53,795 nucleotides of DNA from a virus. The stretch is from UHGV virus genome UHGV-0191815. One strand, given 5' to 3'. The notes below the pieces were generated by a model. The model saw only the letters and a list, made by a program, of their open reading frames with translations, searched no databases and was not told the DNA's origin. Shown here piece after piece: positions 10,012 to 48,677 of this stretch (position 1 is the first letter of the stretch; each line of letters opens with the position of its first letter). Position numbers and translations under genes: made by a program.

Positions 10012-10029
10012 TATGTTATTGCCTCCGGT

Positions 10030-11148
10030 TTACAAAATGGAAAATTCAGGGTAATAAACAAATCGCCCGATTTCACCATGATCCGGGCTGTAAATTATTA
10101 CCGCCGCCAGGCGACGCGACCTCCAGCCTCCATTAGTCGAATACGCATCCTTGCCAGCTAACGTGCCGTGGTGCTCAACAATTCCTAGTGACGTTTCAAT
10201 GACTGTTTGATGGTGCAGATGCCCAGTGTGAGCGTAAACAGCAACCGACTTCCCGAAATCTTCGCGCCAGTCAGCTACGCAAGCAGACAATAAATTTTCC
10301 GGTTTTTTGATAGTGTGCCCGTGGTGGTAAGCAAGGAATGTTTTCCCGTACTGCGTGTGGTGTACGATAGTAGGTGACACATCAACCGTCACGCGCGGTT
10401 CATCTTCGTAAAAAGCAGCCAGCGCCGCACGCAGCCAAATCATACCAGACTGGTCATGATTCCCTGATAACACCTGGATTTCCACATCCTTATGATTTAG
10501 CAACATCTTTCCGACCGCCCGCCGGACAGACCGGATCGCCACATAAACAAGTTTTGCGTAGCGCGAATCGCAATCAAGAACGTGATTGCTTGATGGCGTC
10601 ACTGGTAACAATCCGTCAGTGTGAAGCAGGTCGCCACCGAGAAGTAAGACCGCTTTTTCACTCATAGGAGCAGCGCCAACAGCATAATCAAAGAAGTCAT
10701 TTAACACGCGTTCAGCGATCCCAGTGTCGTAGCTCTCGCCACATTCAGCTTTGTGAGCAAGTGCCCCGATGTGCAGGTCAAACACCGGATAAAGTGCCAG
10801 GCTTTTTTGAAAATCAATTTCAGGCACTGACACAGCCTCCGCGCGTGGTATTTCATTCGTGAAAGCGTCGCGGGCGGCTTGCATTAGCCGTTCCATTTCG
10901 TCGCTGTCACGGGCCGTTTTAATCCAGCGCATGACCGTATTGCCAGCATTATCGACAAGAACAGATTCACCAGTAACGCTAAAACCAGGAGCGCGGCGCG
11001 TGGATATTAAACCGCGTTTTGCTAGTTTTGCGCCCAGGCGTTCGACATTGCGTTTAGACATGCCATATTTTTCAGCGATCTGTTTATACGTTAAACCGTT
11101 TTGGTATTCAGCGATTAACTGCTCATCGCTGATTTTTCTTTGCGACAT
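10030..11148 (-). CDS. HTH domain fused to calcineurin-like metallophosphoesterase
   Basis: N-terminal HTH (LTYKQIAEKYGMSKRNVERL); phosphoesterase motifs DLHIG, GDLLHTDG, GNHD, HTGHLHH; start chosen at MSQRK with RBS ggagg. Confidence 0.65.
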   Translation of the reverse strand: MSQRKISDEQLIAEYQNGLTYKQIAEKYGMSKRNVERLGAKLAKRGLISTRRAPGFSVTGESVLVDNAGNTVMRWIKTARDSDEMERLMQAARDAFTNEIPRAEAVSVPEIDFQKSLALYPVFDLHIGALAHKAECGESYDTGIAERVLNDFFDYAVGAAPMSEKAVLLLGGDLLHTDGLLPVTPSSNHVLDCDSRYAKLVYVAIRSVRRAVGKMLLNHKDVEIQVLSGNHDQSGMIWLRAALAAFYEDEPRVTVDVSPTIVHHTQYGKTFLAYHHGHTIKKPENLLSACVADWREDFGKSVAVYAHTGHLHHQTVIETSLGIVEHHGTLAGKDAYSTNGGWRSRRLAAVIIYSPDHGEIGRFVYYPEFSIL

Positions 11149-11181
11149 AATGTTAATTCCTCCAGTTAACAAAATGTATAC

Positions 11182-11924
11182 CTATTTGCACGCAAAAAGT
11201 TCAGACACCCAAAGTTGACCCTTAGCAGTAAATAGTGATTGTACATAACCAGCATCCGAACATTTTACCACTCCATAGCCTTTGTCTACGAACCACTGCT
11301 TGAACATACGCCCTCCGCGCTTAATTCGAGTATCGTACACGTCAACCTGTTCGAGTTTTTTGTTGAGTTGCGTAGCAGTCATACCCAAAGGCCTGGCAAC
11401 CTGTGTTGCGTTGCGATACTGTTTGTTTCTCACAATCGCATCACAGACAGCCGCTTTTGGCGCTAATTCCTTGTTTTCCAGCGCCAGCCGTTCAGCTTCT
11501 TTCTGTGCTAATAGTTTTTGTTCCACCTCATCAGCCCATGCGCGAGCCGCAGCAACCGGGTCAGTGAAATCCGGCAAAGCTGGTTTAAAACCGTAATGTC
11601 CATTTTCACGCAAAGCAGGGAGAACATCCTCGCACACCCAATCCTGGAAGCGCTCAGCCGATTCTATTTTTGATCGCATCACAAGGCGGTAAACATCTGA
11701 TTCATGGATTAGCGTTACGCCTTGCGGGATTGGAGCGAATCCCAAATGTTCCATTTCAGAACATTTTATTTTTATCAATGACTTACAGTGATCTTTGATA
11801 GCTTTTGTGGCGTAGCGTAACCAAGCGCCCGCGCCACATCCATTGCAACAAAAGCAGGTTTACCATCATAAATTACAGCAGTGATTTTATTGTCATCAAA
11901 ATTAAAGCACATCAACTCAGACAT
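11182..11924 (-). pseudogene. Antirepressor (Bro-N + KilAC/ANT domains) interrupted by a frameshift near 11775-11780
   Basis: Bro-N N-terminal half (MSELMCFNFDDNKITAVIYDGKPAFVAMDVARALGY) is in ORF 11775..11984; the rest (...FQDWVCEDVLPALRENGHY plus the KilAC region ATQVARPLGMTATQLNKKL) is in ORF 11182..11778 in another frame; junction lies in an A-rich run. Confidence 0.5.
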
Positions 11925-12056
11925 TGTAATTTCTCCGTAAAACGCGCTACAACGCAAAAATCCCACCGCGTAACCCGATTGCACAGGTTGCAGTGTTTTA
12001 TTGCGTCAGATGCGCTTTTAGGTGGCTAATTTTTGATTTACAGACTGATATGAAGG

Positions 12057-12158
12057 TTATGGATTGACGAGAAGGAACAAACCGCCGAACAAAGCGACGT
12101 TAACAGCGATTGCAGCAGCGATGGCAAAAGCCAGGGCGAAAACGTGTTTACCGTCCAT
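12057..12158 (-). CDS. Putative 33-aa transmembrane peptide
   Basis: MDGKHVFALAFAIAAAIAVNVALFGGLFLLVNP; short hydrophobic ORF in an otherwise non-coding gap. Confidence 0.3.
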   Translation of the reverse strand: MDGKHVFALAFAIAAAIAVNVALFGGLFLLVNP

Positions 12159-12186
12159 TTTCAAAATCCTCTCTAAAACGCTCTCT

Positions 12187-12242
12187 AGCGAGCTAAATAG
12201 CTAAAGGTATGCAAGTGTAGCACCACATGCGATTTAGCTCGC
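12187..12242. repeat. 12-bp perfect inverted repeat (agcgagctaaat ... atttagctcgct) separated by 32 bp
   Basis: Read directly from the sequence; lies between the antirepressor and the replication initiator gene. Confidence 0.5.
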
Positions 12243-12292
12243 TGGTGAGCTTGTTTTGCGGGTAATTTTTGATTTTTGCGGATCGTGGTTGG

Positions 12293-13345
12293 TCAAAGAG
12301 CGCCTGCGCGTGTATCACGTAGCGTTTTTGGTTTAAGCAGGAAATCAAGTGTCGCAGTGAAGCCATCGCCGAAGTAAAAATCTGAAGCATTGTTTTTGAA
12401 CGTTTCAAAGTAGGCGACAAAGCCGTTAATGCTTTTGTCTTTCAGGTAGTCGGTGAACGCGTAGATCTTGCGTTCAAGATCCCGATCCAGTTCGGCAGGT
12501 GGCAACAGGCCATCAAACGTGCTGTTAAATGCCTCCACTACGTCGGCAGCGTTTGCAGTGGCTGACAGGTTGCGCCATTTTTCAGCATCAGCCAGATACC
12601 CATCAAATTTAGTTACCCGGCAAATGTTAACAGGCTTAGGAGTTCCGCCACGACTACGCCATTGCGTTAAAGCCCACTCAATCACTAATGTGATCTCATC
12701 CTCTGTGTATGCTTTACGTGTTTTTGTTTCTGTCAGTAGTTCTGTAAATGGCTTGGCATCACGACATTTGCATCCTGCCTTGTCGTTGTAGAAGGCCAGG
12801 CAACGCAACGCCGCTTCGTTTATGCCATCATGACTGACTGTTTTTTGTTCACTTTCGACAATACACGTAGTGTATATATCTTTTTCTCTTTCTTCTTCTT
12901 CTTCTAATTCTAATTCATGACCCTTTCCTGACCCGGTCATGACCCTATCATGACCTTTTTGTGTTGGATTGATTAACTTTTCTAATTTTAATTGTTCCTT
13001 CGCTGTGTTTATTGCTGCCCTATATGCGCTTTTAGAAGTCATTGATTGGTCCAGCCTTTTTAATAACTTTAAACAAGTTATGTGGCCCTGAGAACATTCA
13101 AACAAACCAATTTCGATGAAGTATTTCATCATTTCTTCTATACGTTTTTCAGTCGATCCGACGTTTCGCGCAATGATTCTCGCGTCATGTCGTAGGTCAA
13201 AAGTCAGATTATGCTGATCTACGTCATAAGTTATTAGTTCGAGGCAATACCAATAAAGCCCGTACCCTTCCAGGCCATAATCTAACAAAACGTTTTGAAG
13301 TTTTTCATCGCGGTTAGCATCGCTATCGTGCTTAAACCACTTCAT
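12293..13345 (-). CDS. Replication initiation protein (replisome organiser, DUF4373-like N-terminus)
   Basis: N-terminus MKWFKHDSDANRDEKLQNVLLDYGLEGYGLYWYCLELI is typical of phage replication initiators; RBS ggagg; iterons lie inside the gene. Confidence 0.7.
   Translation of the reverse strand: MKWFKHDSDANRDEKLQNVLLDYGLEGYGLYWYCLELITYDVDQHNLTFDLRHDARIIARNVGSTEKRIEEMMKYFIEIGLFECSQGHITCLKLLKRLDQSMTSKSAYRAAINTAKEQLKLEKLINPTQKGHDRVMTGSGKGHELELEEEEEREKDIYTTCIVESEQKTVSHDGINEAALRCLAFYNDKAGCKCRDAKPFTELLTETKTRKAYTEDEITLVIEWALTQWRSRGGTPKPVNICRVTKFDGYLADAEKWRNLSATANAADVVEAFNSTFDGLLPPAELDRDLERKIYAFTDYLKDKSINGFVAYFETFKNNASDFYFGDGFTATLDFLLKPKTLRDTRAGAL
12915..12955. repeat. Candidate origin of replication: four iterons (tcatgaccc / tcctgaccc) with exact 11-bp phasing, next to a polypyrimidine/AT tract
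   Basis: Iteron starts at 12915, 12926, 12937 and 12948; flanking tract tttttctctttcttcttcttcttctaattctaatt (12875-12912); sits in the linker region of the initiator gene, as in lambda O. Confidence 0.55.
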
Positions 13346-13348
13346 AGA

Positions 13349-13603
13349 TCATTCCTCCGGCAATGCAATATCATAAATTTCGCCGTATTCGTCAGCGCGT
13401 TTAATGAATCCTTTGCGGATTAATGAGTTTAATGCGTCAACAGTAGTATGCAGTGGCAGTTCGCAGACTTTTGCGATCTCTTCGCGTGAAGCATGTGCGC
13501 GGCCCTTGTTGTCTGCCTTTTCTGCAAACGCCATTAAGACAATTTTTTGAATCGGGCTGTTAAGTTTTACGTTCCATGCTTTGCTAATCATGTTCATACT
13601 CAT
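13349..13603 (-). CDS. Small HTH DNA-binding protein, first gene of the minus-strand early operon (Cro/CII-like position)
   Basis: MSMNMISKAWNVKLNSPIQKIVLMAFAEKADNKGRAHASREEIAKVCELPLHTTVDALNSLIRKGFI; RBS aggag 9 nt upstream of this ATG; divergent from the repressor gene. Confidence 0.55.
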   Translation of the reverse strand: MSMNMISKAWNVKLNSPIQKIVLMAFAEKADNKGRAHASREEIAKVCELPLHTTVDALNSLIRKGFIKRADEYGEIYDIALPEE

Positions 13604-13909
13604 TGTGTTTTCTCCTATGGTTAAAATGAACGCGCTGGCGGGCATCCCATTATCATTAGATAGCAGTGATTGACCGCTGAACAGATCCCGCCGTTGCGTG
13701 ATATTTGTTTTTCGCATTGCAGCGACACCTGGTTTTTAAAGAGCTTTCAAGGTATGTGCCATTTGTGCTTTCCATTATCTTTTTTCTTGCATCCTTGCAA
13801 CTATGGCCTTACCTTGTCAGCAAGTTTACAGAATGTTGTTAATAGATCAAGGATTGAAAAATACATTTTGTGACTTGCATCAAAAATTTTTAGGTTATAG
13901 GGTAGCGAT
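13604..13909. promoter_or_regulatory. Divergent immunity-region control region (candidate operators and promoters for the repressor gene and the minus-strand early operon)
   Basis: About 300 bp non-coding between divergent HTH genes; contains atacattttgtgact (13861-13875), the palindromes ttgca-tcct-tgcaa and cttg-tcag-caag, and the nut-like element. Confidence 0.5.
13713..13750 (-). promoter_or_regulatory. nut-like element on the minus-strand transcript (boxA-like GCTCTTTAAAAA + hairpin CGCTGCAATGCG)
   Basis: Reverse complement reads agCTCTTTAAAAAccaggtgtCGCTGCAATGCG; near-identical to the plus-strand element at 22441-22474. Confidence 0.45.
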
Positions 13910-14557
13910 ATGAAAACAAAATGGTATGACTTGGCAAAACAACTCATGCGGGCGCAAGGCATGAGCCAGGATTCATTGGCTGATCTTATGGGGATAACCA
14001 AAGGTGGCCTTTCTCACTGGTTGAACGGTCGCCGTGAGCCGAATCTTGAAGATATTACGCGGATCATGCGGGCGCTTGGGCGTCGGCAATTCACTGTTAC
14101 TCATGATGGTATGGTCATTGATGATTCTGTTTCTAACACGTTGCCGGGAGCGCCACCGCGTGATTTAGGTAGTTACCCGGTTGTTGACTGGAAGGACGCA
14201 GCAAACAATATGGAAGACATACGCCGATCAACATTACCACACGTTACGACTAGCGTTATTTGTTCAGATGATAGTTACTGGCTGGTTGCTAAAGGTGAAT
14301 CAATGAACGCGCCGCAAGGGTTAAGCATCCCGGCGGGTACTATGATACTTGTTGACCCGCACGCGCCAGCTATTGATGGCAAACTGGTTATAGCCCAACT
14401 GGAGGAAGGGCAGACACCGACGTTTAAACAGTTGATTACTGATGGAGGCAGAAAACTTTTGCGTTCACTTAATCCGTTGTATCCTCCGATCCCTATGAAT
14501 CCAGAATCAAAAATCATTGGCGTGGTTGTTGATGCGAAGATCGTAAACCTGCCATAA
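13910..14557 (+). CDS. CI-like prophage repressor (HTH_XRE N-terminal domain + LexA-like S24 peptidase C-terminal domain)
   Basis: HTH (SQDSLADLMGITKGGLSHWLNGRR); C-terminal S24-type region (...LVAKGESMNAPQGLSIPAGTMILVD...KLVIAQLEEGQTPTFKQL) with Ser and Lys catalytic context. Confidence 0.85.
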   Translation: MKTKWYDLAKQLMRAQGMSQDSLADLMGITKGGLSHWLNGRREPNLEDITRIMRALGRRQFTVTHDGMVIDDSVSNTLPGAPPRDLGSYPVVDWKDAANNMEDIRRSTLPHVTTSVICSDDSYWLVAKGESMNAPQGLSIPAGTMILVDPHAPAIDGKLVIAQLEEGQTPTFKQLITDGGRKLLRSLNPLYPPIPMNPESKIIGVVVDAKIVNLP

Positions 14558-14562
14558 ACATT

Positions 14563-14587
14563 AGCCGCCCGGTGGCGGCTTTTCTTT
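14563..14587 (+). terminator. Terminator after the repressor gene
   Basis: Stem agccgcc / ggcggct followed by tttcttt. Confidence 0.5.
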
Positions 14588-14679
14588 GCCATAAAAACGC
14601 CAAAACGTAAACAGAAAACCGTGTTTATTGTTTAAATATCAATGGCTTATAAATTTTATAAAAAAGTATACAAAATGTG

Positions 14680-14708
14680 TTGACTGGTGTTTTTACGTGG
14701 CGTATATT
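14680..14708 (+). promoter_or_regulatory. Sigma70-type promoter for the plus-strand early operon (PL-like), with an operator-like sequence abutting the -35
   Basis: -35 TTGACT (14680-14685), 17-bp spacer, -10 TATATT (14703-14708); gTATACAAAATGTG lies at 14666-14679. Confidence 0.6.
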
Positions 14709-14962
14709 GCGAATCAAAGGAAGGATGCAGGTAACAAAATCAACTTCCTGGCACTTTAAAAATCAGGCTTAACACCTTGTCAACCGTGGAGTAACTCCCC
14801 GATGGGGGACCGAAAGCGGCACTGATAACAAGGCGCATGGGGTGTTTAAAGCGTTACATCCCCCACGAAACCGCACGCAAGGCGACGAGTCAGCTTGCTT
14901 GGAGTGAGCAGGGTCACACCGGAAACGGCGATGATTGCGGGATTAGTTGAAAGATGTTAAGC

Positions 14963-15000
14963 CATTCTTTAACAATCTGGTCAGCCGCTGGAAGTGCGGC
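14963..15000 (+). promoter_or_regulatory. nut-like site: boxA-like (cattCTTTAACAAt) followed by hairpin GCCGC-tggaagt-GCGGC
   Basis: Lies in the roughly 340-nt leader between the promoter and the first early gene; boxA resembles the rrn/lambda boxA consensus. Confidence 0.45.
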
Positions 15001-15056
15001 AATTAACGAAGATGATTTTTTATTAAGTATCATCAAGGATATAAGGAGATCAGATC

Positions 15057-15347
15057 ATGGCAGTTACAATCATGTATGGCAAATGTGACAGTAAACTGAA
15101 TGCCAGGGAACGCAGAAGAATAAAAAGAGAAAACGAAAGAAAATCATCACCTGCAATTAATAAAACAGACAATGTGGATAAAGCTATTCGCTTTGCAAAC
15201 GAGGAAAGATGCAAACCAAATAGCATTAAAGAACATCGCAAAGGAGCAACAAAATGGTATGCGGAAAGTGAAAGCGGAAACTACTTCCACGCAACGCAAC
15301 CGCGCCAGCTTGGTGAAATCCCGCTAGACAAAGTTCGATACCATTAA
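15057..15347 (+). CDS. Putative N-like transcription antiterminator (arginine-rich motif protein)
   Basis: 96 aa; N-terminal arginine-rich motif NARERRRIKRENERK; first gene after the promoter and nut-like site; RBS aaggag. Confidence 0.45.
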   Translation: MAVTIMYGKCDSKLNARERRRIKRENERKSSPAINKTDNVDKAIRFANEERCKPNSIKEHRKGATKWYAESESGNYFHATQPRQLGEIPLDKVRYH

Positions 15348-15377
15348 TACATATCGTAAACAATATGAGGTGACGTT

Positions 15378-15500
15378 ATGGTTATTAAGGCGCTTCAATT
15401 CAAACTGGCGGTAGCGGAAATGCTTCACGATGCCGAAATGTGGAGCGCCGCGAATAAAGCCTTGTATGTAGTGTTAACAGCGAAGGAGATTAAAGAGTGA
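15378..15500 (+). CDS. Hypothetical small protein (40 aa)
   Basis: MVIKALQFKLAVAEMLHDAEMWSAANKALYVVLTAKEIKE; RBS gaggtga; stop overlaps the erf GTG start. Confidence 0.4.
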   Translation: MVIKALQFKLAVAEMLHDAEMWSAANKALYVVLTAKEIKE

Positions 15501-16138
15501 AAACAGAGTTACACAAAAAGCTGTGGACGATTCAACAAACGTTGAACGCTCCGAAAAATCAGCGTAATAATTTTGGTGGGTACAATTACAGATCGGCGGA
15601 GGATATTTTGGAGGCGGTTAAGCCACTTCTTCAAAATATAACGCTGACTGTTAGCGATGAAATCGTCCTGATCGGCAATCGCTATTATGTGAAAGCCACT
15701 GCCACACTAAGCGACGGAGAAGATGAAATTGCGGTAACTGCTTACGCCAGGGAAGAAGAAAGCAAGAAGGGAATGGATGCAAGCCAGCTAACTGGCGCGA
15801 CATCAAGTTATGCTCGTAAATACGCGTTGAACGGGTTGTTCTGTATTGACGATGCGCGAGATCCTGATACTGACGCATACGCTAAGCAGACAGGCCAGCA
15901 GCCTCGCCAACAGAAAAACCCACCAAAACAACAACCACAGCAGCAGAAAGCGCCGCCAAATCCTGATGAAGTGTTAGCGCGTTTCTGTGATGCGGCAGCG
16001 AAAGCGCCGGACGCTAACAAGTTGCGCGAGATATTCGGGAAGTGCTGGAAGCTACTTCCTAAAGATTCAGAGCAGCAACAGAAAGCCAAAGACGTTTATG
16101 ATATTCGCTTAAAAGAGATTAACGGGGAGATCGGTTAA
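15497..16138 (+). CDS. erf: Erf-family single-strand annealing recombinase
   Basis: Strong collinear similarity to P22 Erf: LNAPKNQ..FGGYNYRSAEDILEAVKPLL...DEIVLIGNRYYVKATAT..DGE...REEESKKGMDASQLTGATSSYARKYALNGLFCIDDA. Confidence 0.85.
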   Translation: MKTELHKKLWTIQQTLNAPKNQRNNFGGYNYRSAEDILEAVKPLLQNITLTVSDEIVLIGNRYYVKATATLSDGEDEIAVTAYAREEESKKGMDASQLTGATSSYARKYALNGLFCIDDARDPDTDAYAKQTGQQPRQQKNPPKQQPQQQKAPPNPDEVLARFCDAAAKAPDANKLREIFGKCWKLLPKDSEQQQKAKDVYDIRLKEINGEIG

Positions 16139-16608
16139 TGAGCTTAAATTCAATCACGCTGGGCGGTAATATCGGAAATGATATGGAAGTTCGCCACACG
16201 CAAAACGGTAAAGCTATTGGTAGCTTTCCGTTAGCTGTAACGAATGGCTACGGTGATAATAAAAGGACTATGTGGATCACTTGCCTGGTATTTGGCGAGC
16301 GCGCTGAAAAAATAGCGCCACATATTCGTAAGGGTGGAAAAATAGTGGTAAGCGGTCGCCTGGATGTTCGGCAATATGACCGGAACGACGGCACGAAGGG
16401 GACTGCGGTGGAAGTGGCTGTCAATGAGTTCGAATTCATGAACGTTAACCAGCAAGGCCAGCAGCAAGGCCAACAGCAGAAAGCGCCACCGCAGCAGCAG
16501 AGTAATAACGGTGGATATAAAGAACCGCCAATGGACTTCGACGATGATATTCCATTTGCTCCTGTAGGGTTACAATATGGCAAAAGCAGGATCTACGCGC
16601 TATCTTGA
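16138..16608 (+). CDS. ssb: Single-stranded DNA-binding protein
   Basis: OB-fold N-terminal region (ITLGGNIGNDMEVRHTQNGKAIGSFPLAVTNGYGD), Gln-rich linker, acidic C-terminal tail DFDDDIPF. Confidence 0.85.
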   Translation: MSLNSITLGGNIGNDMEVRHTQNGKAIGSFPLAVTNGYGDNKRTMWITCLVFGERAEKIAPHIRKGGKIVVSGRLDVRQYDRNDGTKGTAVEVAVNEFEFMNVNQQGQQQGQQQKAPPQQQSNNGGYKEPPMDFDDDIPFAPVGLQYGKSRIYALS

Positions 16609-16870
16609 TGCGCCGCCGATTCCGCGAACAAAAGAGCAAGTTCTCAAAGAAGCCCGTGATCAAATCGATCATGGGCTTTTTTTATGCGGCACGGCAGCGG
16701 AACGGATGGCAAAAAGATTTAGTGACCTGTACGCAAAGCAAATATGGTTCGACAACTGGCAGGCAAGTTTTTATCCACTACAAAGAAAACCGGATATGCA
16801 CTGGCCTGAATATGTCGATCCACGTATGCGCAAATATCGCGGGCGTATGGGCCAGGTCATTAACGATTAA
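16577..16870 (+). CDS. Hypothetical protein (start uncertain; 5' end overlaps ssb)
   Basis: ORF continuing the operon. Confidence 0.35.
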   Translation: MAKAGSTRYLDAPPIPRTKEQVLKEARDQIDHGLFLCGTAAERMAKRFSDLYAKQIWFDNWQASFYPLQRKPDMHWPEYVDPRMRKYRGRMGQVIND

Positions 16871-17109
16871 TGAGGTATCAAATCATGATCGAGGAAAAAG
16901 AAGTTGATAAGGAAATGCCTGACACAGCAGATGACTACGTTACTTTTGATGGTGGCCTGTATGAGTTCGATACGTCGGCTGGGTGGACTGATAAGTGGCC
17001 TCTTCCTACTCGCCAGGAACTAATGGCGCGCAAATCATTCGGCGAAGATGCGGAACGCCTTGCCAATAACAAGTGGCTTAACAAGTTTATTGCGGAGGGT
17101 GGAAAATGA
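16870..17109 (+). CDS. Hypothetical protein (79 aa)
   Basis: ORF with ATGA overlap to the next gene. Confidence 0.45.
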   Translation: MRYQIMIEEKEVDKEMPDTADDYVTFDGGLYEFDTSAGWTDKWPLPTRQELMARKSFGEDAERLANNKWLNKFIAEGGK

Positions 17110-18758: not shown

Positions 18759-18857
18759 TATTGTGATTGCGATTACATAACTATACGTTTTGTGTTGTGA
18801 TCGCAAATCCGTTTTGTAAACTGAAATCGAAAGGTTTACAGCACGGAGGGAAACAAG

Positions 18858-22344: not shown

Positions 22345-22366
22345 AATTTACAAAATGGCGTCATTG

Positions 22367-22382
22367 TGTGATTTGTGTCACA
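22367..22382. promoter_or_regulatory. Perfect palindrome TGTGA-tttgtg-TCACA (CRP-consensus-like, or a phage operator)
   Basis: Read directly; lies just upstream of a candidate promoter. Confidence 0.4.
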
Positions 22383-22398
22383 TAATGGCGCTTTTCTT

Positions 22399-22427
22399 CT
22401 TGTTTACGTGTATCCATTTTGTATACT
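22399..22427 (+). promoter_or_regulatory. Candidate internal promoter (-35 cttgtt, -10 TATACT)
   Basis: -10 TATACT at 22422-22427 with a 17-bp spacer; overlaps ccattttgtatac, a copy of the recurring motif. Confidence 0.35.
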
Positions 22428-22440
22428 GCAAACAAAATAA

Positions 22441-22474
22441 ACGCTCTTTAAAAATCCGGTGGCGCTGCAATGCG
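22441..22474 (+). promoter_or_regulatory. nut-like element: boxA CGCTCTTTAAAAA + hairpin CGCTGCAATGCG
   Basis: boxA matches lambda nut boxA (CGCTCTTA) closely; the whole element is near-identical to the minus-strand copy at 13713-13750. Confidence 0.45.
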
Positions 22475-42884: not shown

Positions 42885-43187
42885 TTATTTGTATGCTGCG
42901 AATCGGCATCTTGCTTCATCAAGGTCATGAACATCGTACACGTTATCGTAAATGTAAGTTGCTACCTGTGCTTTCTGTACGTCAGTTGCGTTCGGGAACT
43001 CCATGCTTACGAAAGTCACTGCATCAACGTAGTGTTTGAACATCTTTTTGTTAACGCACAGCGCGTAAATCAATACAGCAGGCCAGCAAATCAGCGCACC
43101 AAAGAATGCCAGGAGCATATTCAGATGTTTTTTCTGAGCTACAACCATAGTTGCGACGAAGCCGATGAAGCAAATTACCAGTTCCAT
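42885..43187 (-). CDS. Membrane protein (100 aa) in reverse-oriented cassette 1
   Basis: MELVICFIGFVATMVVAQKKHLNMLLAFFGALICWPAVLIYALCV (two TM segments) then a soluble tail. Confidence 0.5.
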   Translation of the reverse strand: MELVICFIGFVATMVVAQKKHLNMLLAFFGALICWPAVLIYALCVNKKMFKHYVDAVTFVSMEFPNATDVQKAQVATYIYDNVYDVHDLDEARCRFAAYK

Positions 43188-43405: not shown

Positions 43406-43574
43406 TTTCTTATCCTCTTTTGCTTCCTCCGGTTCATCCGGTCTTTTAAATCCTTTTTCTGTTTCCTGTTAGTTTTAGGGGTTTTCGCCTCCCTCGTTCC
43501 TTCGGTTGGCTGTGCCTCAAGTCTTAATCCCTTATTCCTTCGACCTTCTTTTCTCTCTCTTCCTTTGACTTCTT

Positions 43575-43614
43575 TATACAAAATGTATACGTTGAAGTGA
43601 AGACATTTTGTATA
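43575..43614. promoter_or_regulatory. Pair of inverted palindromic motifs (TATACAAAATGTATAC and ACATTTTGTATA) flanking gttgaagtgaag
   Basis: Read directly; about 40 bp upstream of the tape measure start and upstream of minus-strand cassette 1. Confidence 0.5.
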
Positions 43615-43654
43615 AAATAGGGATCTGGATCACGCTTTTTAGTGAGGTAAAATC

Positions 43655-46826: not shown

Positions 46827-46884
46827 CTGTATACAATATGTAATTGCCGAAGTGAAGCCATTTTGAAAACTAGCTATAATCATT
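46827..46884. promoter_or_regulatory. Palindromic motif ctgTATACAATATGTAa plus candidate plus-strand promoter for the tail tip operon (-35 GTGAAG, -10 TATAAT)
   Basis: -10 TATAAT at 46875-46880 with a 17-bp spacer; motif 46830-46842; gaagtgaag box shared with the site at 43591-43600. Confidence 0.45.
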
Positions 46885-48592: not shown

Positions 48593-48610
48593 TACAATAT
48601 ACATATTGTA
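48593..48610. promoter_or_regulatory. Perfect 8-bp inverted repeat TACAATAT-ac-ATATTGTA upstream of cassette 3 and of gene L
   Basis: Read directly; a candidate -35 TTGATC for the minus-strand cassette lies nearby. Confidence 0.5.
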
Positions 48611-48677
48611 AAAAACGCGATCAACCGTTCTGGTATGGTTTAGTGTGATGGCGATCACAAAATGACAAGGTGATAAA

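Follow-up and report, generated by a model that had tools for sequence, protein, structure and literature searches.

The immunity and early-control region of an mEpimmI-type coliphage: a CI-family repressor gene flanked by predicted operators and two early promoters

We analyzed the virus genome UHGV-0191815, a stretch of 53,795 nucleotides (nt) called the window throughout, around a gene for a repressor of the lambda CI family. To the left of this gene lie an intergenic region of 306 base pairs (bp; 13604-13909) and a leftward gene for a helix-turn-helix (HTH) protein; to its right follow a terminator, a promoter, an antitermination (nut) site and a gene for an N-like antiterminator. An earlier interpretation made from the letters alone (the sequence-only reading) had described positions 13604-14708 as a mirror-image lambda-like immunity region with a Cro-like leftward gene and a leaderless-looking repressor gene, and all the sequence features it listed are present where it had placed them. 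This locus is the segment for immunity and early control in a temperate coliphage that belongs to the already described mEp021-like "mEpimmI" group. Megablast of 13300-15400 returned seven phage records with identical gene order at 90.6-93.2% identity (mEp515, mEp021, mEp010, mEp044, mEp554 and mEp013 of the Escherichia mEp series, and MagusPhagus), together with 35 E. coli prophages at 80-95% identity (best among the matches listed, 91.6%). A further 44 contigs in IMG/VR encode repressors that are 91-98% identical, the closest of them (L045) reaching 96% at the DNA level. Members of the group share a Rep021-type repressor and a syntenic early region; here, the nucleotide identity is 90-96%, the repressor is 94-98% identical by tblastn to those of the seven sequenced phages of this type, and the synteny is kept.

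The mEpimmI phages were described by Negrete-Mendez et al. 2025 (PMC11893012) and are reported to be as frequent as lambdoid phages among human faecal isolates. According to that study, the plasmid-expressed mEp021 repressor (Rep021, gp15) stops infection by six phages of the group, and Gp17 is an N-like antiterminator with the sites nutL (upstream of gp15), nutR1 (upstream of gp17) and nutR2, antitermination being N-, nut- and Nus-dependent. Terminators t1, t2 and t5 were shown experimentally, the mEp021 repressor is without the Ala-Gly cleavage site, and ultraviolet light (UV) fails to induce mEpimmI lysogens (PMC11893012, citing Kameyama 1999). Operators and promoters are not described there. 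With mEp021 the window shares, in order, the gp14-like HTH gene, the Rep021-type repressor gene, t1, the gp17 N-like gene, kil, erf and ssb, as well as the positions of nutL, nutR1 and nutR2 and the lack of Ala-Gly; it differs in being a separate genome with another allele of the replication module, its HTH protein having 35% amino-acid identity to gp14. What the sequence-only reading proposed is thus largely a rediscovery of the published immunity and antitermination system of the mEp021 group, with one gene, one operator and one prediction wrong, and because a published system is mostly found again, it leaves existing knowledge unchanged. As far as we have checked, the predicted operator and promoter map, the apparent absence of Cro and CII, and the dispersed operator-type sites reported below are not in the literature.

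The repressor gene (13910-14557, plus strand) encodes 215 amino acids (aa) with an N-terminal HTH domain and a C-terminal S24 domain (Pfam HTH_3, residues 10-57, expectation value (E) 4e-13; Peptidase_S24, E 5e-19), which bears out its earlier description as a CI-like S24 repressor. Among solved structures, lambda CI comes closest to it (3BDN, E 2.5e-19; alignment over CI residues 28-227), and the Ser-Lys dyad is present (GESM against lambda GNSM, Ser149; TFKQL against TFKKL, Lys192). We place the start at the ATG at 13910 because relatives with 36-50% identity keep the N-terminus MKTKWYDLAK and because the HTH_3 match already starts at residue 10. The GenBank record of mEp021 (MH706966; locus L001, 2853-3449) gives a repressor of 198 aa that starts 51 nt downstream of the conserved ATG; the equivalent start here, ATG 13961, was rejected since the first 17 residues are conserved in the relatives at 36-50% identity, and the 215-aa form is supported by the 2024 records of sister phages and by all relatives. 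A scan of genome contigs with the repressor returned a single, irrelevant distant HTH match.

The cleavage site of lambda CI, VQAGMF (Ala111-Gly112), aligns with KDAANN in this repressor, so that an Ala-Ala takes the place of Ala-Gly. Among the 46 close relatives the dipeptide is TV in 28, VV, AV and AA in four each, and VA and AG in three each, while AG is kept in lambda and in all classical relatives (defined below). A dipeptide that drifts this freely suggests that the site is no longer under selection, in agreement with the reported failure of UV induction. By this alignment, the RecA cleavage dipeptide is decayed; a LexA box (CTGT-N8-ACAG) was found nowhere in the window. SOS induction, which the sequence-only reading had expected from the S24 domain, is accordingly unlikely for these lysogens: Ala-Gly is replaced, there is no LexA box, and UV is reported not to induce lysogens of the group (PMC11893012).

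To locate operators we relied on more distant repressors. The next relatives by tblastn (39-50% identity), those of KPP5665-2, Midgardsormr38, ENT1, phage L/ST64T and Vibrio P2, belong to classical lambdoid immunity regions, and so do those of two IMG/VR contigs at 36% repressor identity. Seven relatives at 36-50% identity (IMG/VR contigs L048 and L050, Klebsiella KPP5665-2, Erwinia Midgardsormr38, Enterobacter ENT1, Vibrio P2 and Salmonella phage L) each carry three WWTAC-N5-GTWW sites, at -74 to -77, -42 to -44 and -16 to -18 from the repressor ATG. In the window and in mEp021, TAC-N5-GTA sites are found at -78 and -43, with none at -17. A matrix built from the 18 operators of six classical relatives only (L048 was omitted as a near-duplicate of L050) was run over 53,779 positions of the window, where the background mean is -18.6 bits. 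The putative OR2-like operator AATACATTTTGTGAC (13860-13874, centre 13867, -43) scores 14.8 bits, ranks 8 of 53,779 and lies within the best-conserved block of the region. The sequence-only reading had already singled it out, as atacattttgtgact, and its rank with a matrix from distant relatives and its OR2 position uphold that choice; ATACATTTTGTGACT, at 13861-13875, is a partial dyad only (ACA..TGT). The candidate OR1-like operator TTTACAGAATGTTGT (13825-13839, centre 13832, -78) reaches 7.2 bits (rank 35) and overlaps the spacer and -10 of the predicted leftward promoter. In the OR3 slot, the best matrix score is -4.1 bits (rank 1513), giving no operator over the maintenance promoter, and in place of the three-part right operator of lambdoid phages, with OR3 over PRM, we find the sites at -78 and -43 alone. 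This predicted arrangement without OR3 is an unpublished detail.

A second predicted cluster lies at the promoter of the N operon, where two sites 25 bp apart cover its -35 and -10. The OL2-like operator TATACAAAATGTGTT (14667-14681; matrix span 14666-14682; 13.1 bits, rank 11) abuts the -35 and has an invariant core in the relatives, and the OL1-like operator TTTACGTGGCGTATA (14692-14706; matrix span 14691-14707; 11.0 bits, rank 16), with the dyad TAC-N5-GTA, lies over spacer and -10. On weak evidence, GTTTACGTTTTGGCGT on the minus strand at 14597-14612 (matrix span 14596-14612; 6.7 bits, rank 43), 69 bp upstream of the OL2-like site, conserved in relatives and syntenic in mEp021, may be a third left-side operator (OL3). 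The geometry is shared: at PR and PRM of the six classical relatives, as at the two early promoters predicted here, the first base of the -10 lies exactly 4 nt from the centre of the operator dyad. The palindrome TTGCA-TCCT-TGCAA (13787-13800), likewise put forward earlier as a candidate operator, had to be dropped, both as an operator and as an RNA hairpin, since it scores -9 to -21 bits, which is background, substitutions at 13791 and 13794 are uncompensated, and its symmetry is lost in most relatives.

On the minus strand, nutL (13713-13744) consists of boxA GCTCTTTAAAAA (13744 to 13733), an 8-nt spacer and boxB CGCU-GCAA-UGCG (13724 to 13713), a short stem with a GNRA-type loop; mEp021 has the loops GCGA and GAAA at the same places, and the words of boxA and boxB are found again in nutR2 (plus strand, 22443 and 22463). 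Given the position of nutL, the leftward early promoter, equivalent to PR of the classical relatives, must sit within 13745-13909. Our candidate occupies 13823-13850 on the minus strand (-35 TTGATC, 13850 to 13845; 16-nt spacer; -10 TAAACT, 13828 to 13823), with a predicted start at about 13816, 72 nt before the nutL boxA. Across 30 distinct relatives its hexamers are conserved and its spacer is variable, and it is the only candidate with such a pattern; the alternative TTGCAA-15-GATAAT (13800 to 13774) was set aside because its -10 ends in a T that is variable among most relatives. The 306-bp intergenic region, which had been taken for one control region, divides accordingly: operators and promoters are confined to about 13817-13909, and the remaining ~210 bp (13604-13816) would be a transcribed leader with nutL.

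Downstream of nutL and before the first leftward gene, this leader contains a conserved non-coding stretch of about 96 nt (13611-13706, minus strand). Its mean pairwise identity of 0.98 (27 distinct relatives) equals that of the first and second codon positions of the repressor gene (third positions, 0.875), while the adjoining gene is highly variable (0.82). A branched GC stem is predicted in which GGCGGG (13694-13689) pairs with CCCGCC (13645-13640); it is predicted on both strands, with fold z-scores of -1.4 on the minus and -2.2 on the plus strand, and on the plus strand an invariant UUUGUUUUU run comes after it. Substitutions in the stretch are too few for an analysis of covariation. It may be a terminator or an antitermination target. 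An intrinsic terminator for leftward transcripts after nutL was rejected, as its U-run is unconserved and reads UUCACUCU in most relatives, and so was a 9-mer shared by both leaders (AAGGATGCA), which is unconserved on the right side.

The first leftward early gene (13349-13603, minus strand; ribosome-binding site GGAGAA) encodes a winged-helix protein of 84 aa (Pfam HTH_36, E 4e-7). The sequence-only reading had taken it for Cro-like. Residues 1-72 match PHROG 4617, 1032 and 8540, "replication initiation protein / O-like", at E 6e-19 to 5e-10 (phrog_4617, E 6e-19), and a Lin1244_N / O-like replication protein directly follows, so the protein is a winged helix of the replication-initiator type and is not Cro-like. 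An extension of the gene to a 122-aa open reading frame (ORF) reaching 13717 is untenable, as most relatives have CTT in place of its ATG and since the ATG at 13603 has a proper ribosome-binding site before it. The 84-aa protein is only 35% identical to mEp021 gp14, although the repressors of the two phages are 96% identical and their operator sites match, and DNA similarity to mEp021-type genomes ends exactly at 13609, with a mosaic joint at about 13604-13610. This divergence and the break in similarity place the protein in an exchangeable replication module and not in the immunity module.

We searched all 759 stop-to-stop ORFs of at least 35 aa in the window for Cro and CII, using the proteins of the relatives, lambda and P22 by tblastn and by profile/phmmer comparison, and only the HTH of the repressor itself was matched; a profile of four XRE-type Cro proteins from relatives likewise found the repressor only. 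No ORF in 13604-13909 is conserved across relatives, and the small candidates at 13656-13775 (minus strand) and 13670-13873 (plus strand) were discarded as cro-like genes because a 2-nt indel at 13745/6 breaks every frame in the relatives. In the classical relatives, an XRE-type cro lies about 100-120 bp from the repressor gene (four annotated phage records and the ORF listing of L050); three of the records (phage L, ST64T and the Erwinia phage) also list a cII, for which L050 has a candidate ORF after cro. The lambdoid pattern of a cro gene divergent from the repressor gene is thus not seen in the window, where the first leftward gene is of the replication-initiator type, and any Cro function would be absent.

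For the repressor gene itself, a PRM-like promoter is predicted at 13875-13903 (plus strand), with -35 TTGCAT (13875-13880), a 17-nt spacer and -10 TAGGGT (13898-13903). TAGGGT is separated from the ATG by 6 nt, and transcription is predicted to begin (+1) at A13910, the first letter of the start codon. TAGGGT stands at -12 to -7 in all 46 of the close relatives and TTGCAT at -35 to -30 in 41 of them. The register is that of the classical relatives, whose -10 (TATAAT, TATGAT, TATCAT or AATAAT) lies at -12 to -7 or -13 to -8 and ends 6-7 nt before the ATG. A Shine-Dalgarno sequence is absent from six classical relatives, and in the window the pairing of the upstream 20 nt with the anti-Shine-Dalgarno sequence amounts to -4.6 kcal/mol for the repressor gene against -6.9 to -9.5 for seven neighbouring genes. 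TAGGGT keeps both critical bases (A in second and T in sixth place); the -10 of lambda PRM is TAGATT. The lambda cI mRNA from PRM is leaderless (PMC10491246). The register of the promoter at the ATG is thus in line with the leaderless-looking gene of the sequence-only reading, but the -10 proposed there, TTATAG (13895-13900, 9 nt before the ATG), lacks both A2 and T6 and gives way to TAGGGT. Two further hexamers were rejected, TATAGG (13896-13901) for want of T6 and TAGGTT (13891-13896) because it reads TGGGTT or GAGGTT in most relatives.

As a separate observation, TGTGA-CTTGCA-TCAAA (13869-13884) resembles the CRP site TGTGA-N6-TCACA. Conservation within the operator region is highest in this word; it overlaps both the -35 of the repressor promoter and the right half of the -43 operator, and its centre lies at about -60.5 from the predicted leftward start. 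Its TGTG may simply be the usual right half of the OR2-type sites of this family.

To the right of the repressor gene, terminator t1 (14563-14588, plus strand) consists of a hairpin (14563-14580; 7-bp stem with six GC pairs) followed by TTTTCTTT. Its equivalent in mEp021 is annotated TERM_1, and since t1 was shown experimentally there (PMC11893012), the terminator proposed after the repressor gene can be accepted. The rightward early promoter TTGACT-17-TATATT (14680-14708, plus strand) matches 10 of 12 consensus positions, has conserved hexamers and a predicted start at about 14715. It is the sole 10/12 match in 13300-15400, where the total of promoter-like matches is not above that of shuffles (4 against 4.6 expected), and it is the PL-like promoter of the sequence-only reading, now with conservation on its side. 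The nut-like site noticed there is also recovered: nutR1 has a boxA-like element GCACTTTAAAAA (14751-14762, plus strand), which shares CTTTAAAAA with nutL and nutR2, and the published nutR1 lies upstream of gp17 (PMC11893012). The putative nut sites stand 9-72 nt past the predicted promoter starts, and nutL and nutR2 each have a boxA and a boxB hairpin; their function is known from the literature for mEp021 only.

The N-like gene (15057-15347, plus strand) encodes a 96-aa homologue of Gp17 (PHROG 271, "anti-termination protein N-like", E 7e-11; Pfam N_peptide, E 0.009, below its cut-off). Its residues 16-25, ARERRRIKRE, form an arginine-rich motif with arginines at 17, 19, 20, 21 and 24; R17, R19, R20 and R24 of Gp17 are reported to be invariant and functional (PMC11893012). 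The PHROG match and this motif support the earlier assignment of the gene as N-like. Between the nutR1 boxA and gp17, the leader holds an optional GC-rich insert of about 198 bp (14768-14965, plus strand), bounded by imperfect inverted repeats of 18-19 nt (GGCTTAACACCTTGTCAAC at 14766-14784 and GTTGAAAGATGTTAAGCC at 14946-14963) and containing a 37-aa ORF that is annotated gp16 in mEp021. The insert is cleanly absent from seven distinct relatives and has 0.987 identity where present, as it is in most relatives; its GC content is 0.58 against 0.3-0.4 in the flanks, and its fold z-scores are -2.4 and -3.0. An Rfam search of 12000-17000 (E up to 1) gave no match to it. The N-like gene is followed by Kil-like, ERF and SSB genes.

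Operator-type sequences are not confined to this region. TACRWWWYGK occurs 23 times in the genome against 7.9 ± 2.7 in shuffles, and TACAWWWTGT 11 times against 1.35 ± 1.16 expected; 15 of the 19 motif loci are not within any ORF of 90 aa or more (P about 2e-6), and about a dozen are syntenic in mEp021. Matrix hits of at least 10 bits number 22 in the window and 15 in mEp021, compared with 5.2 ± 2.3 in locally shuffled copies of the window. In ST64T, which served as a control, the same matrix picks out OL (three hits), OR (two) and two weak others. The dispersed sites lie at 1705-1750, 10028-10043, 11166-11181, 15345-15361, 18781-18821, 22346-22426, 43574-43615, 46829-46845 and 48597-48613. 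Three places show the +4 geometry with a plausible -35 (18795-18822, 22400-22427 and, on the minus strand, 48624-48596), and strong sites are also found in front of the tape-measure gene (43574-43615) and of tail genes (46829, 48597 and 1705-1750). One of the three is the predicted promoter TTGTTT-16-TATACT (22400-22427, plus strand), which is closely preceded by a terminator-like hairpin, carries an operator-type site across its -10 and stands 9 nt upstream of the boxA of nutR2 (boxA 22443-22454, boxB 22463-22474, plus strand), so that nutR2 seems to head its own repressible transcription unit. Each nut site would then follow an operator-bearing promoter, which would explain why the group has three of them.

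Taken together, these findings make it likely that the locus is an mEpimmI-type immunity region with a CI-family repressor, two repressor-controlled early promoters and N-type antitermination sites. The repressor most likely binds TAC-N5-GTA operators, two to the left of its gene (-78 and -43) and two or three to the right, and its binding would shut both early promoters. When free, the leftward promoter TTGATC-16-TAAACT would be read through nutL into the replication genes, and the rightward promoter TTGACT-17-TATATT through nutR1 into gp17, kil, erf and ssb, toward nin, Q, lysis and virion genes. The repressor gene would be read from the weak TTGCAT-17-TAGGGT as a leaderless mRNA ending at t1, and the -43 operator is placed like lambda OR2 for activation. 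Several points weigh against this picture. The leftward promoter matches the consensus at 8 of 12 positions only and was missed by a consensus scan, and the PRM-like promoter is poor (3/6 and 3/6). The -78 site has one good half-site, being TTTACAAAATGGAAG in most relatives (right half GG, not GT). The AGGG within TAGGGT, 7 nt before the ATG, could serve as a weak Shine-Dalgarno sequence on transcripts from further upstream. A Cro analogue dissimilar to known Cro proteins may exist, and the map of operators and promoters as a whole is deduced from sequence.

Two alternatives concern the genes on either side of the operators. The 84-aa leftward protein could itself be a functional Cro that binds the same operators and turns down the repressor promoter. 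As the product of the first gene of the promoter diverging from the repressor gene, and as a small protein with a DNA-binding fold, it has the right place and shape for this; yet its N-terminal domain matches replication initiators at E 6e-19, an O-like gene comes next, it shares just 35% identity with the mEp021 version despite a shared repressor (96%) and operators, and some 210 nt, with a nut site among them, separate it from its promoter, whereas a classical cro begins about 100-120 bp from the repressor gene. We regard this role as very improbable. A stronger contender, though still an unlikely one, is a repressor mRNA with a leader, transcribed from an upstream promoter such as TTAATA-17-TACATT (13839-13867) or one for establishment located in the leader region, and translated through the AGGG at 13899-13902. 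This AGGG stands at a workable distance from the ATG, its pairing of -4.6 kcal/mol is the best among the relatives compared, and TTAATA-17-TACATT matches 8 of 12 consensus positions against 6 of 12 for the promoter of the leaderless form. In most relatives, however, TACATT becomes CACGTT and TTAATA is altered, whereas TAGGGT and TTGCAT are near-invariant and in the exact register of the consensus -10 of the relatives; the pairing is also far below that of every neighbouring gene tested, and the six classical relatives manage without any Shine-Dalgarno sequence. On this geometry and conservation, a leaderless repressor mRNA from TTGCAT-17-TAGGGT remains somewhat the better supported of the two.

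A third alternative questions the motif itself: TAC-N5-GTA might not be, or not only be, the operator of the repressor, and could instead serve a different protein, of phage or host, or be no more than a recurrent promoter module with a built-in -10. Its occurrence at about 20 places, many of them distant from the immunity region, the fact that the right half GTATA or GTAAA itself makes a -10-like hexamer, and the several sites with one good half-site only would all fit such an explanation. Nevertheless, the same motif forms three-operator arrays at lambda-like positions before seven homologous repressor genes and is confined to OL and OR in ST64T, and no plausible promoter accompanies the sites at 10036, 11173 and 15353, so that it is not a mere promoter element. 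We therefore consider it improbable that the motif serves something other than the repressor.

If the motif does mark repressor binding, a wider interpretation comes into view, which we offer as tentative: a CI-family switch stripped of cro, cII, OR3 and the RecA site, whose repressor may exert genome-wide silencing from some 20 operator-type sites. In at least five cases the site would lie over a promoter (the two early promoters, 18795-18822, 22400-22427 and 48624-48596), and further sites stand before tape-measure and tail genes, at points where the late operon is broken up by moron cassettes on the minus strand. Each of the three nut sites might then mark a separately repressed, N-dependent transcription unit of its own. 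The gp71 repressor of mycobacteriophage L5 offers a parallel in its dispersed 'stoperator' sites. As in L5, many repressor-type sites are spread across the genome, mostly in short intergenic spaces; unlike L5, the repressor is of another family, and many of the predicted sites lie over promoters and not within operons.

Compared with lambda, the order of repressor gene, terminator, strong operator-controlled promoter, nut site and N-like gene is that of cI-timm-PL-nutL-N, and the repressor family, the putative operator at -43 and the predicted leaderless-type repressor start also correspond to those of lambda. The window differs in being without cro, cII and OR3, in its Ala-Ala dipeptide, in its three nut sites, and in an operator of about 15 bp (TAC-N5-GTA) where that of lambda has 17 bp. 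The N arm moreover carries nin, Q, lysis and virion genes, and the replication genes lie on the other arm. The mirror image of lambda that the sequence-only reading saw consequently holds for the local order from repressor gene to N-like gene; beyond this neighbourhood the genome is not mirrored. With the immC regions of the classical relatives, the window shares the N-terminus MK.KW.DLAK, the operator motif, two of the three right operator positions, a -10 embedded in an operator half-site and the predicted leaderless-type start; unlike the window, those regions have a palindromic OR1, an OR3 over a consensus-like -10, an intact Ala-Gly and an XRE-type cro. By its workings the locus is a lambda-type immunity region, but one that lacks three classical features of the cI-OR-cro arrangement, namely cro, OR3 and Ala-Gly.

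The use of the present analysis is a map that is absent from PMC11893012, giving coordinates for the predicted operators, three early promoters and the leaderless-type start. Should the wider interpretation hold, these phages would have a natural CI-type switch without Cro, CII, negative autoregulation or RecA cleavage, whose lysis-lysogeny decision and induction proceed without Cro, CII or SOS and whose repressor polices promoters inside the virion gene cluster. Such a switch would bear on which parts of the lambda circuit stable lysogeny can spare.

Some further observations concern the surroundings. The tail cluster is broken by minus-strand cassettes of small genes (42885-43187 in the window; gp63, gp65-68 and gp71-74 in mEp021), and one such cassette gene of mEp021 is annotated "putative antirepressor". 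Each cassette is divergent from the next tail gene, and the intergenic region between them holds operator-type sites. A 13-nt word, CCGGTTCATCCGG, occurs at 1672-1684 and 43429-43441; both copies are intergenic, are followed by a similar flank containing TTAAAT and lie shortly upstream of clusters of operator-type sites. The one match of the Rfam search, to Thr_leader at 16580-16685, scores 23.6 bits (gathering score 55; E 0.35) and is very likely a chance match to a terminator-like hairpin (AAGCCCGUGAUC...GAUCAUGGGCUUUUUUU) after ssb. Finally, the repressed leftward operon contains a Bro-N and KilAC antirepressor-type gene (11182-11984, minus strand) that is split in two ORFs, with Bro-N profile positions 2-32 in one and 61-96 plus the ANT domain in the next, and that is probably a pseudogene in this phage.

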